Shown piece after piece: positions 2,483 to 60,945 of a stretch of DNA of 64,000 nucleotides. The notes beneath the pieces were generated by a model. It ran no database searches. It was not told the origin of the DNA and saw only the letters and a program-made list of their open reading frames with translations. Location of the stretch: IMG/VR virus record IMGVR_UViG_3300020020_000024. One strand, 5' to 3'. The translations under genes were made by a program, and so were the position numbers. Source of the DNA: an uncultured virus (IMG/VR IMGVR_UViG_3300020020_000024). Its lineage: Duplodnaviria > Heunggongvirae > Uroviricota > Caudoviricetes. Numbering within the stretch: the first letter of the stretch is position 1; each line of letters begins with the position of its first letter.

Positions 2483-2755
2483 ATGCGAATGGCAGTTGAG
2501 AACAACCGCCAGACACATCTAAAAATAAAAAAAATGCATCTAAATATAGTAATCTTTTCTATGATAAAATAAAGAAGGCGACTAAGAATAGCCGCCCGTT
2601 TCCAAAAAAAAATTCCTATGAAAAATCATTCAAATGTAATACTCTATTGTGGTAAACAAAATATCCATTGTATATTGGCATCGGCGTAAAACGTCCGCTT
2701 GATAAGTTAATGATGATTTGGACTTATTAACAGAATTAGTTTAACGCCCTCAGTC

Positions 2756-9257: not shown

Positions 9258-9556
9258 AATCGAATTTAGAAGTCATAAAATCCGCAATAAGTCTTATCGC
9301 TGCAGTAACGATTGTTGGTAGCGGTTATTTCCTTTATAGGAACAACATTTGGATTCCGCAAGTTGATGTTATAAAGTATGATCCGCAAGTTGGAGCAGTA
9401 GTAGTGGTGAATGCAAAAAAGATGATAGTGAAAGAGAATCAGACGATCCATGCCGGTGGAATGTGGGGAGTACGATTAAGCGGAGATGATGAGCAGATTA
9501 CAAGACTTGAACTTTTAAAAAATAATTTGGTTTACAAAACCTATCAATTGAATTAA
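9254..9556 (+). CDS. N-anchored membrane protein
   Basis: N-terminal TM plus small beta domain. Confidence 0.65.
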   Translation: MKSNLEVIKSAISLIAAVTIVGSGYFLYRNNIWIPQVDVIKYDPQVGAVVVVNAKKMIVKENQTIHAGGMWGVRLSGDDEQITRLELLKNNLVYKTYQLN

Positions 9557-9558
9557 TC

Positions 9559-9651
9559 ATGAAAAACGTTTTACTGATAGTTGCGGTAGGTCTGGCAGTA
9601 GCTGCCGGATATACTTATTTAAAAACTCGTCAGCAAAATAAAGAGTCATAA
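9559..9651 (+). CDS. 30-aa membrane peptide (not in ORF track)
   Basis: MKNVLLIVAVGLAVAAGYTYLKTRQQNKES. Confidence 0.6.
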   Translation: MKNVLLIVAVGLAVAAGYTYLKTRQQNKES

Positions 9652-9687
9652 ATTTTTTTCTTATTCTTAACCTTTAAATTTAAAATC

Positions 9688-9825
9688 ATGGCAGACAATG
9701 TAGTAACAGCAAACGCTCCTACTAAATCAAATGCAATCGCATGGGCACTCGGCGCATTAGCATTAGGTGCAGTAGTTTTCGTGGTTGCTTTCGCTTGGAA
9801 GAAAGGCGAAAAAGCTGGTGCTTAA
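9688..9825 (+). CDS. 45-aa membrane peptide (not in ORF track)
   Basis: MADNVVTANAPTKSNAIAWALGALALGAVVFVVAFAWKKGEKAGA; A-rich leader. Confidence 0.7.
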   Translation: MADNVVTANAPTKSNAIAWALGALALGAVVFVVAFAWKKGEKAGA

Positions 9826-9905
9826 TATTAACCGGGGTCATTCCCGGCACATCCATGAGGATGGCCCCTGTTATTTTATCCATCTAAATCAATTAAGCAT
9901 TTATC

Positions 9906-49530: not shown

Positions 49531-50160
49531 TTAGCTTCCTGTATTTTGTAGATATTCCTGATTTTGGGAATGGTGATTAAGCTTACTTGATAAATCGTAG
49601 TTTTGGTACAGCAATATGAATGTAAGCAGAAATGGCATTTTACCTCTAATGATTTTCAATGCTCTTTGTTTTTGCTTACGAACAGACCCAGAAGTAGTTC
49701 CCATGATGCCTGCAATTTCTTCACAATTATTTTGTTCAAAAAAATAAAGTTTAATTACTTGTTGCATTCTAGGGGAAAGCAATTCAATATGGTCAACTAT
49801 TTGTCTGATCATTTCAGCAAAAGCAACTTCGTCAAAATATTCAAAATCATTGGTGCTGTTATTTATTATATACGATTTTGCCTTTAAAACAACCTTCTTT
49901 TTCCTTAATATATCAATACATCCATTACGAACAGATGTATATAGAAATGACTTTATAGTTTCTGGTCTTTTTATTTTTGGGCTATTCCATAATCCTACAA
50001 AACAATCCTGAACAATGTCCTTTGCTTCTTCCTCATTATTTAATATAGAATTGGCAAAGTAACAAAGAGCAGTATAATATTGCCTGAATAAGAAATCAAA
50101 TCCAGCTTGGTTTCCATTTTTGAAGGCCACGATCAATGCTTCATTAGGTAGCTTATTCAT
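49531..50160 (-). CDS. ECF sigma-70 factor (Bacteroidetes-type)
   Basis: FDFLFRQYY.ALCYFA, AKDIVQDCFVGLW, SFLYTSVRN, LSPRMQQVI, EIAGIMG. Start taken at MNKL. Confidence 0.9.
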   Translation of the reverse strand: MNKLPNEALIVAFKNGNQAGFDFLFRQYYTALCYFANSILNNEEEAKDIVQDCFVGLWNSPKIKRPETIKSFLYTSVRNGCIDILRKKKVVLKAKSYIINNSTNDFEYFDEVAFAEMIRQIVDHIELLSPRMQQVIKLYFFEQNNCEEIAGIMGTTSGSVRKQKQRALKIIRGKMPFLLTFILLYQNYDLSSKLNHHSQNQEYLQNTGS

Positions 50161-50188
50161 AACCGTATTTTTAATTAAAAATATTATT

Positions 50189-50602
50189 TTACTGTTGTCC
50201 ATTATTGGGTATTAAAGCGGTGTTTAAAGCCGTCTTAGCATCTATGATCTGCCCTTTTACATTGGCTATTTCGCCCCTGATCTCTAAAAGCAATTCTTGG
50301 TTAGGACAATTATGTTCAATAACATCGGCACATTTTGTAAGCATATCCGATACTTTCATTAATCTAAAGGCTGACCGATTTAATGTAGTCGCAAGTAACG
50401 GCGCTGTATCATAAAATTGTTTTAATCCAGCATCTTCAAAAATTGAATCCTGCCATTGTTGCCTGTGACCTTCTCTTGTTTCTTCTATACCAAACTTTGG
50501 GCAATTGTGTCCACTTGATTTGTGCAACCCTCCACCGGCACCACAGTTGGCGCACACATCAATACTTCTTGGATAAACCTCTGTGCCTAATTCGATTTCC
50601 AT
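50189..50602 (-). CDS. hypothetical protein (CxxC..H..C)
   Basis: CANCG...H...C. Confidence 0.55.
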   Translation of the reverse strand: MEIELGTEVYPRSIDVCANCGAGGGLHKSSGHNCPKFGIEETREGHRQQWQDSIFEDAGLKQFYDTAPLLATTLNRSAFRLMKVSDMLTKCADVIEHNCPNQELLLEIRGEIANVKGQIIDAKTALNTALIPNNGQQ

Positions 50603-56823: not shown

Positions 56824-56845
56824 TATATTTATATATAATAATGCC

Positions 56846-56879
56846 AACAGTCACGAAAAAATATTTCGTGACTGTTTTT
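56846..56879. terminator. strong hairpin (terminator-like)
   Basis: AACAGTCACGAAA-aaata-TTTCGTGACTGTT. Confidence 0.7.
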
Positions 56880-56889
56880 GGCTTTATTG

Positions 56890-57270
56890 TTAGAATCCGT
56901 AGGGGTTTGTTGTTCTGACCTTTAATGTTGAATGAAAAGGAGCAATAATGGTAGCCCTGATCCACATATTAGGTACAAAGAGAGCGGGTGTGCCATTTTC
57001 ATCAGAATGGCCAACTAAGAAAATGTTATATGCAAATGGTTCAAGAGTAAATGTTTCTGTAATACCAACTGACAATAATTCAATTTCGATAGTGATCGTT
57101 TGGTCAGTATAATTCGTAAGAGCCACGCTATAACCAGCGTAATCGCTGTAAGAGTTATAATCTATGAATTCCATACGGAACGCACGATTTGAAGAAGCGT
57201 TTTTTTTCTGAGCATTAACGTTGCTGGTGAATGCTGCAAGTACTAAAAGTACGATAGTAAGTTTTTTCAT
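56890..57270 (-). CDS. secreted protein with signal peptide
   Basis: MKKLTIVLLVLAAFTSNVNA-Q. Confidence 0.7.
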   Translation of the reverse strand: MKKLTIVLLVLAAFTSNVNAQKKNASSNRAFRMEFIDYNSYSDYAGYSVALTNYTDQTITIEIELLSVGITETFTLEPFAYNIFLVGHSDENGTPALFVPNMWIRATIIAPFHSTLKVRTTNPYGF

Positions 57271-57300
57271 TGTTGTAAAGTTTAGAGTTAAAAGGATTAT

Positions 57301-57320
57301 CAAATGTATATATATACATT
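57301..57320 (-). promoter_or_regulatory. -7 element TACATTTG overlapped by an 18-bp palindrome
   Basis: AATGTATATATATACATT perfect palindrome at 57303-57320. Confidence 0.55.
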
Positions 57321-57412
57321 AGCTAATACTATCTTTTTTGCAAAAATATTTTTACAACACGCATTTGGCTATACAACTTCGTTATATAACAGGAGATTAG
57401 AGGGATTAGTAA

Positions 57413-58117
57413 TTATACGTTAGTGCGGATCGCAGCAAGGATAGCCCCATCCTGGCCTACGAATTTCTTTATATAGGCTCTTGTTTCTTCAACCTTTAAT
57501 TTGCTTACGATTGTAGCGGTATCTGCATTTTTGAGACCAGCAAGAATAATTTCTTTAGTGTAGTTTCCGTATCCACGATTATATAAAATAATAACGTGAT
57601 CGAGTTTGTAATCACCGAAATCCTTTTTGGTTTTTGCCATCAGTTGGGCAAGGTGCATTGTGCCCATCCATATACTGAATTCAGGGATCAGTAGTGATTC
57701 ATATATTTTCTTTTTCCAGGACAAAGTAAGTAGCGGAACAAAGCCACCAATCTTTAAAAAGTCGGGAAGGTATTTTTGAATAATACTTGCTTCTGCCGGT
57801 TTCAGACTTGCTGCCTGGTCTTTTATTGTTTGGTATGCAGTAGCAACTTGCATTTGCATGAGACCATAAGAACATCCATAATTTGATTTGTCTAGTGTGG
57901 AGCAGCCATAGCTTATAGCTTTGGGATCTAGTGCAGTATTTTCAATGATCATGAAACCAACAACAAAGTTTTTGTCAATACCAACTGTATCAGCTGCTGC
58001 CCTGATTACTGACCCATAGTTTGTTTTGATTTTATTTGCTGCTACAACGGCATCCCTGCTGAAAGTATCTGAATACTTTTCGTTGATCATTGGGAATTGA
58101 ATATAATTAGTTGCCAT
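57413..58117 (-). CDS. SLT-family lytic transglycosylase
   Basis: MIIEN (catalytic E), YGLMQM, YNRGYG, ETRAYI. Confidence 0.8.
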   Translation of the reverse strand: MATNYIQFPMINEKYSDTFSRDAVVAANKIKTNYGSVIRAAADTVGIDKNFVVGFMIIENTALDPKAISYGCSTLDKSNYGCSYGLMQMQVATAYQTIKDQAASLKPAEASIIQKYLPDFLKIGGFVPLLTLSWKKKIYESLLIPEFSIWMGTMHLAQLMAKTKKDFGDYKLDHVIILYNRGYGNYTKEIILAGLKNADTATIVSKLKVEETRAYIKKFVGQDGAILAAIRTNV

Positions 58118-58119
58118 GA

Positions 58120-58260
58120 TTATTCTATTCCTTTTGTGTTTCTTAATTCTGCTCTATCTTCTTCTGAAAGTTTGTTTGGTCTGCGGATAAAGAAGTACCA
58201 TCCAGCAACGCCGCCTAAAACCAAGACGGAACTAATGATGATCGCTACCTTAATTTTCAT
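58120..58260 (-). CDS. small N-anchored membrane protein
   Basis: MKIKVAIIISSVLVLGGVAGWYFFIRR. Confidence 0.65.
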   Translation of the reverse strand: MKIKVAIIISSVLVLGGVAGWYFFIRRPNKLSEEDRAELRNTKGIE

Positions 58261-58369
58261 ATAAAATGTGTGGATGCGGCTAAAAATAAGTAAAAAAAAT
58301 TGAAGCCAGCAACTGTTATTTGCCAGAGTTGGTGGCAAATAATAATTCAATGTTTAATCCGTCAATCTT

Positions 58370-58845
58370 TATATTAGTTCCTTGATTTGGGTAAAGGAAG
58401 TAATGCTTCTTTTAAGGAACAACAAACGGATGTCTTTGCAGTAGGCATCCGTTCTCCTTTTAAAAATCAAAAACAATTGTATCTTTATTGCGCTAACTTT
58501 TTTTAAAGTTGGCTTTTTCTGTTATAATATCATAATAATATTTTTAACTCTCTCATTGGACATACCTGTTGTTATAAGCAGCCTCTTTATTAGGGGCTGT
58601 TTCTTTTTTATTATATTTACCTCGTAGTTTTTCATAGGATATTGAACATAACCAGGATCACCTGCCATTTTTATGGTGGGTGATTTTTTATAACTACAAC
58701 TTTTTAAAAATATTTTTTACAAGATTTGGGTAATTTCTATATAACTTAGGATTGTAATTCTTCCTCAAACTTGCCATAGTTTAGATTAATTACATCGTCC
58801 TGAAATTATAAACCCCCGATTTCCATCGAGGGTTTTGTTTTATAT
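58370..58845 (+). ncRNA. array of four candidate small RNAs / terminator units
   Basis: Four hairpins with + strand T-tracts (58425-58453, 58576-58602, 58657-58684, 58810-58835) in an ORF-free gap between minus-strand genes. Confidence 0.4.
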
Positions 58846-58862
58846 ACCGTCCAAGTATAATA

Positions 58863-59387
58863 TTATTTCACCTGATAAATAACAGCGTTCTTGAAAGTGT
58901 AAGTGTTTGATGCCTGACCTGAGATGAATGTAAGTTCTATTCTTTGTTGTGTGGTAGTGTTGACTGCGACTGTTGCAGCAGTTGGACTGATGATCGGCGC
59001 TATCGCTTGTTTATCTCCAAATAAAGAACCAATAGCAGTTCCACCTGCCCCAATTGATCTTATGGTAATCAAACCACGAAAGAACGAAGGCACCGCAGTA
59101 GTTCCTACCGATCCGGTAAGTGACGCCGCAATGTTTCCTGTAAGAGTTGTATTGCCGATCCTGATCCTGATAGTCGGGGTTGCTGCGTTCGTTCCCGCTT
59201 GTATGCAGTATGCTTCAATTGCAAATGTTGAACCTACTGCAAGTTCACCCACAGCAGCTATATAAGAAACAACAACTGTTTCGGTATTAGCAATAGCAGC
59301 ATCAGCATTAAGAATGCCTCTGCCTCCAACCTCTCCAAAGGTTGCAATTCTATTTGATCCTGTTCCTTTCGGGCCTAAAAAATCCAT
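58863..59387 (-). CDS. beta-rich structural/fibre-associated protein
   Basis: Ala/Thr/Gly-rich with a beta-sandwich pattern. Confidence 0.6.
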   Translation of the reverse strand: MDFLGPKGTGSNRIATFGEVGGRGILNADAAIANTETVVVSYIAAVGELAVGSTFAIEAYCIQAGTNAATPTIRIRIGNTTLTGNIAASLTGSVGTTAVPSFFRGLITIRSIGAGGTAIGSLFGDKQAIAPIISPTAATVAVNTTTQQRIELTFISGQASNTYTFKNAVIYQVK

Positions 59388-59388
59388 A

Positions 59389-60465
59389 TTATCCGATTAT
59401 AATTACTAGGTAAGTATTTGATGCCGGAGCGACAGCAAATGTAATCGTAACCGCATTGACGCTATTACGAACCACATCAGCGTAAACCTCTGCATGTGTA
59501 GAAGCATCTCTTATAGATACAGCGACATCTCTTGTGTTTAAGTTATGCGTACAAACTATTGCAGTAGCTACGCCGTCTCCAATAGAAAATGTTTTCTTCT
59601 GTGTAAAATTTGCAAGGCCAGCAGGAGTCACGGCCCTGGTTGCATCTGATTTCGCTTCTACCTCAGCTTGTGTTGCAAGTTCAACTATCCCTTGTGTCGT
59701 TAATGTTGCGGTGTCAACATTTGCTTGAACTACTACCCAATTAGCACCAACACCAGCATGAGTGCCAGCAGCAGATGAATCCGTAATACAATACAATGTA
59801 TCACCAGCAGTAACATCAACACCTGATGCGCCACCGATTTTACCAGCTACTGTTACCTTGTAAACATGACCAGCATTAGCAGCAGGGTAATTAGGGTTTG
59901 CGCTACAATCAATACCGCCTTTGAATACTAGCGCATCGTTTGCATTGAGTAAGGCATCGATGTATGCCTTAACCGCTTTTTGTGTTGCGAATCTTGCATC
60001 GCTGTTTGCAGTCAATGCTACATCAGTATCGGCAACGTTAGCTGCCAGCATAGCAATAGTCAAATTACTGATCGTGTTATTTGAAGCATTGATCGTTTTA
60101 TTTGTCAATGGTTCGGCCCCTGCTGGTGTTATGTAATCTGTACCAGCAACAGCAGCAGCAACAATACCAGCAGCAATCTTTACAATACCTGCGGTTGTAT
60201 ATGCGGAGATTGTTTTATTAGCACCACCAGCAACTATTAATTCACCGGCACCACCAGCGTTTACGGCTCTTGTAACTGCGTTAACGACGCCAGCACCTAA
60301 ATAGATCCATGTAGTATCCTGGTAGCAACCAAACTGTTTTAGTGTAGTATCATAATAAACCAAGCCTTCTATTGGAGAACCTGGTGCAGCAGGAAGATTT
60401 TGTATAACTGCGTTTAGTAATTCTGTTCTTGTTAAATCGATTCCATTTAAAAACGATGCTGACAT
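59389..60465 (-). CDS. fibre-like structural protein
   Basis: LTNKTI, ATQKAVKAY, GIVELATQAE and THNLNTRDV motifs typical of phage fibres. Confidence 0.7.
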   Translation of the reverse strand: MSASFLNGIDLTRTELLNAVIQNLPAAPGSPIEGLVYYDTTLKQFGCYQDTTWIYLGAGVVNAVTRAVNAGGAGELIVAGGANKTISAYTTAGIVKIAAGIVAAAVAGTDYITPAGAEPLTNKTINASNNTISNLTIAMLAANVADTDVALTANSDARFATQKAVKAYIDALLNANDALVFKGGIDCSANPNYPAANAGHVYKVTVAGKIGGASGVDVTAGDTLYCITDSSAAGTHAGVGANWVVVQANVDTATLTTQGIVELATQAEVEAKSDATRAVTPAGLANFTQKKTFSIGDGVATAIVCTHNLNTRDVAVSIRDASTHAEVYADVVRNSVNAVTITFAVAPASNTYLVIIIG

Positions 60466-60492
60466 AATATTGGATTTTAATAGTAAAAAAAA

Positions 60493-60945
60493 TTAACCTA
60501 AATATACTTTACCGCTAAATGCGGCACGAAATATAACTGTGATAGAGTTTGGATTAACGTATTCAACATCACCATAAACCTTTCTGCCGGTACTATCAAC
60601 AATTGTTACACTAGGAAAATAATTTAAGTTGTGATTAATATTCCAGGTTGTTGCTGGCACTCCTTGTGTATGAGTATAAGTGCCACCACCCGAACTGCCT
60701 GGATCACCTTTTAAATCAATTAATGCAACAAGATCATTCCAGTTTACATCGCCAATATATCTCCATTGAATATGAGTTGATGATTTTTGAAGATCTACTT
60801 CTCTGCCATCTGATCCTGGAACTGAATTTCGATTTCCGATATTTCTTAACCAATCAAAGGCAAATAAATCAGTCCAGTCATCACTTTCACCACCACTCCA
60901 TTGGATATGAGTTGGCGTGATTCTTAATTTTATATCCTGTGGCAT
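60493..60945 (-). CDS. fibre-associated protein (THIQW repeats, collagen-like LKGDPG, HNLN domain)
   Basis: Two THIQW...WxDL repeats; WNINHNLNYFPSVTIVDSTG. Confidence 0.65.
   Translation of the reverse strand: MPQDIKLRITPTHIQWSGGESDDWTDLFAFDWLRNIGNRNSVPGSDGREVDLQKSSTHIQWRYIGDVNWNDLVALIDLKGDPGSSGGGTYTHTQGVPATTWNINHNLNYFPSVTIVDSTGRKVYGDVEYVNPNSITVIFRAAFSGKVYLG

Follow-up and report, generated by a model that had tools for sequence, protein, structure and literature searches.

The non-coding gap at positions 58261-58862 was analyzed in a 64,000-nucleotide stretch of DNA from an uncultured Caudoviricetes virus (IMG/VR record IMGVR_UViG_3300020020_000024; the whole stretch is called the window hereafter). 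The gap is best read as a cluster of plus-strand units lying antisense to late genes, in which the third unit (unit 3, ~58626-58692) would be a diverged, phage-borne copy of a FopS-like small RNA; judged from sequence comparison, a probability of about 0.7 was given to this reading. FopS (RF04319) comprises paralogous small RNAs (sRNAs) of Bacteroides, with 14 members of ~65-70 nt described in B. thetaiotaomicron (PMC11697453). For unit 3, the homology, the architecture, the strand of the hairpin and the copy numbers are established. The numbering of the units follows an earlier note on this DNA, in which the gap had been described as an array of four promoter-spacer-terminator units.

Unit 3 is located on the plus strand and consists of the 5' seed UUUUUCAUAGGAUAUUG, a terminator hairpin at 58654-58687 and a U-tract. 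It is preceded at 58612-58619 by the -7-type promoter box TATATTTA, which has one mismatch to TAnnTTTG and stands 8 nt before the seed. The 12-mer TTTTTCATAGGA of unit 3 has only two exact copies in the window, and the second (2614-2625, minus strand) belongs to another FopS-like unit, UX (2567-2638, minus strand), which lies 56 kb away in a block of plus-strand genes. The layout of UX on the minus strand is an exact box TACATTTG at 2638-2631 with TTTG 18 nt upstream of it, the seed at 2625-2614 and a terminator at 2597-2576 (-13.7 kcal/mol on the minus strand). The two units have a common spacing, namely the box, 8 or 5 nt, the 12-mer, 14 or 16 nt, the hairpin and the T-tract, and both are antisense to their flanking genes. 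The folds of 58626-58692 (plus strand) and 2565-2627 (minus strand) showed a mostly open 5' part followed by the terminator and the U-tract, and only a weak 4-bp stem was found in the 5' part of unit 3. The gap that contains UX (2483-2863, 381 nt) also holds a plus-strand terminator at 2756-2779, ~270 nt past the preceding stop, and an exact TAAATTTG box at 2821, before gene 2864.

The bacterial relatives were collected by scanning one genome per prokaryote species for the pattern of seed plus box. Among the 80 loci fetched, at least 52 carried the full unit; all of these were titled Bacteroidota and most were Chitinophagaceae, including Ferruginibacter, Terrimonas, Chitinophaga, Ginsengibacter, Agriterribacter, Cnuella and other genera. 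The order of the bacterial units was an A-rich stretch, the -7 box, NNNNGG, TTTTTCATAGGATATTGGATTTTAAA, a variable GC hairpin and a T-tract, with TTTG or TTG ~19-21 nt upstream, inside the A-rich stretch. A covariance model (R1) was based on an alignment of 45 of the 53 bacterial units, from which three longer Bacteroidales-type units and near-duplicates were excluded and in which no window sequence was included; compensatory changes were present at all 8 predicted stem pairs of this alignment. When R1 was run over the window with filters off, unit 3 was matched at full length (58626-58690, model positions 1-62, 34.6 bits, E 8.2e-7), and the same was found for UX (2567-2627 on the minus strand, positions 1-62, 33.8 bits, E 1.3e-6). 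Unit 3 was also matched by a hidden Markov model (HMM) of the 5' region with E 2e-4. There was a third R1 match in the window (9515-9568, minus strand, 17.6 bits, E 0.013), which was rejected as a unit; it lies opposite the start of a genuine gene for a small membrane protein.

At E <= 1e-3, R1 detected 14 copies in Chitinophaga sedimenti, 11 in Cnuella takakiae, 23 in Ferruginibacter paludis and 10 in a Chitinophagaceae metagenome-assembled genome, and a match at E <= 1e-6 was present in 41 of the 61 sampled genomes of Chitinophagaceae, the family of Ferruginibacter. Tandem rows with units ~185-200 nt apart occurred in some genomes of the host family. Rows of 2-4 units, 140-300 nt apart and each with its own box and terminator, were seen at loci L221 and L222 (Chitinophaga sedimenti), L216, L119 and L126, and upstream of the box, at ~35-45 nt, many host-family copies had an A-run together with the palindrome ATACC...GGTAT. 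In a BLAST comparison of the whole gap with 201 Chitinophagaceae genomes, the sole recurrent match was the box plus seed of unit 3, and the other matches were scattered and AT-rich. The phage copies diverged from the Chitinophagaceae type after seed position ~16.

The Chitinophagaceae family is a sister of the Bacteroides FopS family. With a gathering cut-off of 56 bits, RF04319 gave 58.7 bits to a Bacteroides graminisolvens member retrieved by the same seed plus box pattern, 37.1 bits to a Prevotellaceae member and 31.2 and 25.6 bits to Chitinophaga members. The 12-mer UUUUUCAUAGGA was identical to the 5' end of the Rfam-positive locus L099, and also to those of L075 and L095.

Units of this type were found in other viral contigs as well. 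The seed plus box scan of IMG/VR returned 22 matches, with ~19 expected by chance according to rough arithmetic; at five loci, representing four distinct sequences, a strong hairpin began at, or within 14-16 nt after, the 12-mer. The four distinct units received 30.5-48.3 bits from R1, and none of the other 17 pattern matches scored with this model. In three of the four contigs (4 of the 5 loci) the unit was antisense to the flanking gene and just past the stop of that gene, as in the window, and in the fourth contig it was situated between convergent genes. A BLAST search of the units against GenBank phages returned noise only.

Hairpins and further units in the gap

The gap of 602 nt is the largest non-coding stretch of the window and lies between minus-strand genes. 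A consensus scan detected nine terminator-like sites in 57000-60000, compared with 2.2 ± 1.8 in shuffles; three of the nine were on the plus strand within the gap, and a separate scan together with folding added H3, H4 and H0. The fold z-scores of the gap were -6.18 for the plus strand and -5.32 for the minus strand, and 0 of 100 shuffles was as stable on either strand. The hairpins had stems of 11-14 bp followed by U-tracts and were terminator-like. Their energies on the plus and minus strands were -9.1 and -4.9 kcal/mol for H0 (58372-58405), -14.9 and -10.0 kcal/mol for H1 (58425-58453), -8.8 and -4.1 kcal/mol for H1b (58492-58513, or 58492-58520 with its T-tract), -15.3 and -8.6 kcal/mol for H2 (58576-58602), and -19.2 and -11.7 kcal/mol for H3 (58654-58687), the hairpin of unit 3; the U-tracts after H0 and H1 were broken by C. 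From 58372 to 58687, the plus strand of these five hairpins was thus 4.2-7.5 kcal/mol more stable, with plus-strand T-tracts and with 1, 1, 1, 2 and 4 G-U pairs in H0, H1, H1b, H2 and H3, respectively, compared with 0 on the minus strand. The same signature of G-U pairs and stability was observed in four plus-strand control terminators from other parts of the window, three of which lay just after plus-strand open reading frames (ORFs). This asymmetry suggested that plus-strand RNA structure has been selected across 58372-58690 amid minus-strand genes.

H4 (58810-58835) was different, with -15.5 kcal/mol on the minus strand and -10.2 kcal/mol on the plus strand, and it begins 28 nt past the stop of the tail-fibre-like gene 58863-59387. 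Based on this stability and position, H4 was assigned as the terminator of that gene and is possibly bidirectional at most. The four hairpins with plus-strand T-tracts reported in the earlier note (H1-H4) were therefore all found where it had placed them, with H0 and H1b in addition, but the strand of the last one was not upheld. The same note had called the gap free of ORFs; it is indeed a non-coding stretch between minus-strand genes, except that a minus-strand ORF of 48 amino acids is on record there. On the minus strand, a weak terminator with a T-run (58326-58306) and an overlapping alternative hairpin (58342-58318) were revealed by the scan and folding. These two structures at 58306-58342 are mutually exclusive and stand 44 nt upstream of a membrane ORF of 46 amino acids, and may act as a regulated terminator ahead of the lysis cassette. 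The search for tRNA and tmRNA genes gave none, and nothing near any cut-off was returned by the Rfam search of the gap. A replication origin, a cos site and a CRISPR-like array were also considered and rejected, since no direct-repeat structure was present and the G-U asymmetry points to hairpins at the RNA level.

Three -7-like octamers had been pointed out before the spacers. They are present, each with one mismatch to TAnnTTTG; no exact TAnnTTTG box exists within the gap, and one-mismatch matches across the window (1243 compared with 1328 ± 30) were at or below chance. Among 25 family copies picked by the model alone, the exact TAnnTTTG was found in 9 and a TAnnTT-type box in 20, at a fixed distance, and the one-mismatch boxes of true family copies include TATCTTAG and TATTTTTA. 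Hence the octamers are compatible with real promoters of the family, and a one-mismatch octamer proves nothing by itself. The triplet CAT occurred 10 times in 58370-58845 against 8.0 ± 2.1 expected, a number reached by 239 of 1000 shuffles, and was not enriched. The proposal of anti-start-codon spacers was supported for unit 3 and unsupported for units 1, 2 and 4.

Unit 1 (58372-58462, plus strand) is composed of H0 and H1 with their interrupted U-tracts and contains the 11-mer GATTTGGGTAA at 58384-94, 6 nt after TATATTAG (58370-77). Unit 2 (58539-58612, plus strand) has the box-like TATTTTTA at 58539-46, a 5' stretch beginning with UCAUUGGACAUACC, the terminator H2 and a U-tract. A possible unit 4 (58723-58845, plus strand) carries the second copy of GATTTGGGTAA (58723-33), 4 nt after TATTTTTT, followed by a long hairpin whose apical loop contains UGCCAU and then by H4. 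The 11-mer is exact in units 1 and 4, in both cases 4-6 nt after a box-like octamer. The combination of box and GATTTGGGTAA had 3 matches in 101 Chitinophagaceae genomes, the same as the 3 matches of a backwards control, and none of its 61 matches in IMG/VR (0/61) had a terminator behind it. H4 partially matched the terminator part of R1 (58805-58842, 11.5 bits, E 0.4). Units 2 and 4 were tried as diverged FopS-like copies and rejected, as their likeness was weak by eye and neither R1 (E up to 10) nor the 5' HMM (E up to 100) matched them. Further small RNAs, of a family with no recognised relatives, are probably encoded by units 1, 2 and possibly 4. This is the best guess given their plus-specific terminators, their open 5' stretches and their position adjoining a true small-RNA gene.

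Predicted pairing and alternative explanations

The duplex energies of the seeds were compared with those of 200 dinucleotide-shuffled seeds on the start regions of 30 SusC/RagA genes from two Chitinophagaceae genomes, in a small test with rough start calls in which the first in-frame ATG was taken as the start. Excess pairing was found for the host-type seed (z -2.45; 3/200 shuffles) and for the UX seed (z -3.22; 1/200 shuffles), and when 46 start regions of other genes served as a crude comparison set, UX alone stood out (p 0.014). Unit 1b gave z +0.83. The enrichment of spacers at start regions over shuffles, to which the earlier note had looked as a check, was thus indicated for the host-type seed and UX, was weak for unit 3 and was absent for units 1, 2 and 4. 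Within the window, the spacers had no better complement in the start regions than shuffled spacers; the earlier note had noticed no perfect target there.

On the 93 start regions of the phage, the host-type seed gave z -4.23 (0/200 shuffles), and the phage copies paired less well, with z -1.96 and -2.42. The best sites of the host-type seed were AAATCCAATAT-type motifs just 5' of ATG in genes 15625, 5515, 11921 and 16538. A AAATCCAATAT-type motif was also noticed before ATG in many phage genes, including 60465. Start regions throughout the host clade may share AAATCCAATAT as a general motif; the alternative is that sRNAs of the host can act on phage messages. The phage copies have lost exactly the part of the seed that pairs with AAATCCAATAT before ATG; on a reading that is considered unlikely, the host family would slow down phage translation and the phage copies would counteract it.

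In the proposed mechanism, the host RNA polymerase would start a few bases past the -7 box and stop at the intrinsic terminator, producing an RNA of ~65 nt with an unpaired 5' end (UUUUUCAUAGGA...) complementary to ...UCCU-AUG-AAAAA. The seed would pair at the translation start of target mRNAs and block initiation, as FopS does on SusC-type transporters in B. thetaiotaomicron. In this way the phage might tune envelope or nutrient-uptake genes of the host during infection, or compete with the host's own copies. A more far-reaching version, in which the gap is a cassette of several RNAs with different seeds and the FopS-like ones mimic the multicopy regulator of the host, is considered unlikely. 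If it were true, the shut-off of SusC-type genes could lead to superinfection exclusion or spare the progeny a dead-end adsorption, provided that these proteins are receptors, and an alternative use would be competition with the host copies. A role of TonB-dependent receptors as receptors of Bacteroides phages has been claimed on the basis of docking in PMC10028833, which serves here as context and not as evidence.

Several results weigh against the FopS-like reading of unit 3 and of the cluster around it. RF04319 gave only 15.1 bits to unit 3 and 12.6 bits to UX, so that the cut-off of 56 was clearly missed. The box of unit 3 has a mismatch and is 8 nt rather than 6 nt away from the seed, and no clear -33 element was found at unit 3. 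On the SusC start regions unit 3 was not significant (z -1.42; 13/200 shuffles) and its pairing there was no different from that on the start regions of other genes (p 0.53); even for the host-type seed the difference between SusC and other starts was weak (p 0.086). Units 1, 2 and 4 showed no excess pairing with SusC genes (z -0.24, -0.72 and -0.41), had no homologues in the 201 Chitinophagaceae genomes by BLAST, and were unmatched by R1 at E <= 10. No near-perfect target was detected in four host-family genomes, where the matches to the complement of the 22-mer with 0-1 mismatches were the sRNA genes themselves; the absence of a near-perfect seed complement is, at the same time, what is expected of trans-acting small RNAs. 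Finally, that unit 3 and UX are transcribed, find targets and benefit the phage is what we infer from the DNA.

These results leave room for other explanations. It is possible, though doubtful, that only unit 3 and UX are genes and that the remaining plus-strand hairpins represent relics of former copies or a series of terminators stopping antisense transcription into the tail-fibre genes. The lack of homologues of units 1, 2 and 4, the chance level of octamers matching TAnnTTTG, the interruption of the U-tracts after H0 and H1, and the 5' stretch of unit 2, which is weakly seed-like (10/14 positions, by eye) as that of a decayed copy might be, are in line with it. However, H2 is a strong, canonical and plus-specific hairpin with 2 G-U pairs that would be hard to retain without a transcript, boxes with one mismatch, TATCTTAG and TATTTTTA among them, occur frequently in true members of the family, and tandem arrays of such units exist in genomes of the host family. 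The view of the earlier note, four independent start-codon-directed phage sRNAs forming an undescribed host-takeover system, seems quite improbable. The box, the open 5' stretch and the terminator are common to all units, and the seed of unit 3 has an anti-start-codon sequence and comes from a family with this known mode of action, whereby unit 3 is a candidate anti-start-codon sRNA in kind through its FopS-linked seed; but CAT was not enriched, units 1, 2 and 4 have no relatives and did not pair with SusC or phage start regions beyond the level of shuffles, H4 is a minus-strand feature, and the CAT of unit 4 is in the loop of a long hairpin and not at an open 5' end. Nor is the kind undescribed, since FopS is published and in Rfam (RF04319), and a FopS sequence had already been noted in one Caudovirales phage (PMC11697453).

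Phages have been suggested in that article as possible spreaders of FopS genes, and we see little probability that the FopS-like units are passenger DNA recombined from hosts with no role in the phage. The divergence of the phage copies past seed position ~16 would agree with a passenger, but both copies in the 64 kb keep the box, the seed, the spacing and a strand-specific terminator, a unit also occurs in four other viral contigs and has, in three of these, the same placement with respect to an upstream gene, and the likeness to host DNA extends over only ~35-40 nt, which indicates that no larger piece was transferred recently. There is a slight chance of an action in cis, in which convergent transcription or antisense pairing would limit the read-through from structural genes into the lysis cassette and time the lysis. 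The gap lies just upstream of the 46-amino-acid membrane ORF and the SLT-domain gene, and the weak minus-strand terminator with its alternative hairpin precedes that ORF; against this, the surroundings of UX are quite different, and bacterial members of the family are trans-encoded. It is very improbable that translation of tiny minus-strand proteins truly begins at the ATG-centred motifs. Two frames on the minus strand come into question, a 48/37-amino-acid ORF (58522-58668) recorded as a called gene in the protein collection and a tiny ATG-started frame of 27 amino acids (58694-58777), and the internal start MKNYE of the former resembles MKNYEANI in the viral locus L022. Among 5.8 billion proteins, though, the 48-amino-acid ORF stands alone as a singleton, without homologues, and strong plus-specific hairpins lie inside it; the equivalent frames stop early, by eye after 4-5 codons in L032 and L034 and after ~11-13 in L079 and L061, and the MKNYE likeness is explained by the opposite strand, where the seed and box are conserved.

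Gene setting of the window

The window has a G+C content of ~37% and comes from a soil phage. Genes are on the plus strand up to ~21 kb and on the minus strand from ~21 to 61 kb, and the protein collection places them on contigs of ~132.7 kb. Few of them were named by PHROG or Pfam, among which were a terminase, several DNA methyltransferases, a thymidylate synthase and a sigma factor. Upstream of the gap on the minus strand lie tail-fibre-like and other virion structural genes (58863-60945; PHROG) with relatives in viral and metagenome contigs. Two tail-fibre-like genes (58863-59387 and 59389-60465) border the gap, and a tail-fibre-like structural protein is encoded at 60493-60945 (PHROG). 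On the other side, the single-pass membrane ORF of 46 amino acids (58120-58260, minus strand) precedes the gene of an SLT-domain protein (57413-58117, minus strand), which follows directly; the two are probably a lysis cassette.

The phage is an orphan. No DNA match to the window was found among GenBank phages, IMG/VR contained relatives of neither the SLT protein nor the terminase, and only distant, non-syntenic relatives of tail-fibre domains were detected in IMG/VR and metagenomes. Over the covered parts, the contigs of another soil sample and of a freshwater sample were identical and offered no variation to exploit. Exact TAnnTTTG boxes were located 35-45 nt 5' of several real genes (2821, 61430, 46600, 56823 and 57348), which fits a Bacteroidota host, and Chitinophagaceae is likely the host family of this ~133-kb phage. 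A phage sigma factor (PHROG 1740) is encoded at 49531-50202 and might drive units that have no good host-type box; a promoter motif of this sigma factor was not found.

Some further features were recorded in the window. A 16-bp hairpin at 56843-56882 (-21 to -22 kcal/mol on either strand), between two minus-strand genes and directly before the promoter box TATATTTG, is probably a bidirectional terminator. The listed TTG start of ORF 56890-57303, at 57303, coincides with the final three bases of a TACATTTG promoter box, and the true start is probably further downstream. At 9559-9830 on the plus strand, inside a supposed gap of 349 nt, there are two unlisted ORFs for small membrane proteins, ~31 amino acids from 9559 and ~46 amino acids from near 9690, where a spurious minus-strand ORF had been mapped.

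Comparison with FopS and other small RNAs

Tandem multicopy sRNA loci, with rows of promoter, sRNA and terminator in one intergenic region, include LhrC1-4 of Listeria, Qrr and PrrF1/2. The units of LhrC, Qrr and PrrF are paralogues, whereas in the gap only unit 3 has a recognisable family. A type I toxin-antitoxin system was considered and rejected, as the ORFs on the opposite strand are basic and not membrane-like, have no homologues and are stopped in the frames of relatives. An RNA anti-CRISPR, in the form of a solitary mimic of a CRISPR repeat, was considered too; the stems of 11-14 bp with their U-tracts resemble terminators.

FopS itself, as presented in PMC11697453, has 12-15 copies per genome, and each member carries a single-stranded 5' seed followed by a terminator and is transcribed from a canonical sigma-ABfr promoter. 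It pairs beside the start codon of mRNAs of SusC homologues and blocks their translation, and this is counteracted by the RRM protein RbpB. The candidate units share with that description a predicted RNA of ~65 nt with an open 5' seed complementary to a start-codon region and a Rho-independent terminator, and many copies per genome (two in the 64-kb window, 10-23 in four Chitinophagaceae genomes). A promoter of their own of the sigma-ABfr type (TAnnTTTG at -7, TTTG at -33) may be a further likeness, for which there are candidate boxes in UX and unit 3, and the same 13-nt 5' sequence is found in members from Bacteroidales with scores above or near the cut-off of Rfam. The difference is that the Chitinophagaceae type departs from FopS after position ~13 and the phage copies depart again after ~16. 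Since the phage copies score below the Rfam cut-off, they were filed as members of a Chitinophagaceae-type sister family that is FopS-like, and not of RF04319. GibS (RF04182) of B. thetaiotaomicron has the same R1 seed as FopS and also pairs at translation initiation regions (PMC11697453), but it is longer and has a second seed and another promoter; in the gap, the GibS model had a single minus-strand match of 24.1 bits, at chance level against a cut-off of 115.

Three points are new, namely that the family has a Chitinophagaceae branch, that this recurs in unrelated phages from the environment, and that there may be an interplay with phage start regions. FopS has so far been portrayed as a regulator of glycan-uptake loci in gut Bacteroidaceae, being "highly conserved within Bacteroidaceae", and Chitinophagaceae are not named in the main text of that article (PMC11697453). 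Our results suggested that Chitinophagaceae of soil and water commonly have, in high copy number, a sister family sharing the 5' seed, that copies turn up repeatedly and at a stereotyped position in unrelated phages of the environment, and that the seed matches a start-region motif used by SusC genes and phage genes alike. Like phage-encoded sRNAs in general (reviewed in PMC12197685), unit 3 would be a trans-acting RNA presumably aimed at host mRNAs. Most known examples, however, are from phages of Proteobacteria and dependent on Hfq, whereas unit 3 would copy a family of Bacteroidota hosts, and Bacteroidota are reported to have neither Hfq nor ProQ (PMC11697453). The phage may therefore offer a testable case of a virus borrowing a post-transcriptional regulator of its host in a phylum that lacks both proteins.

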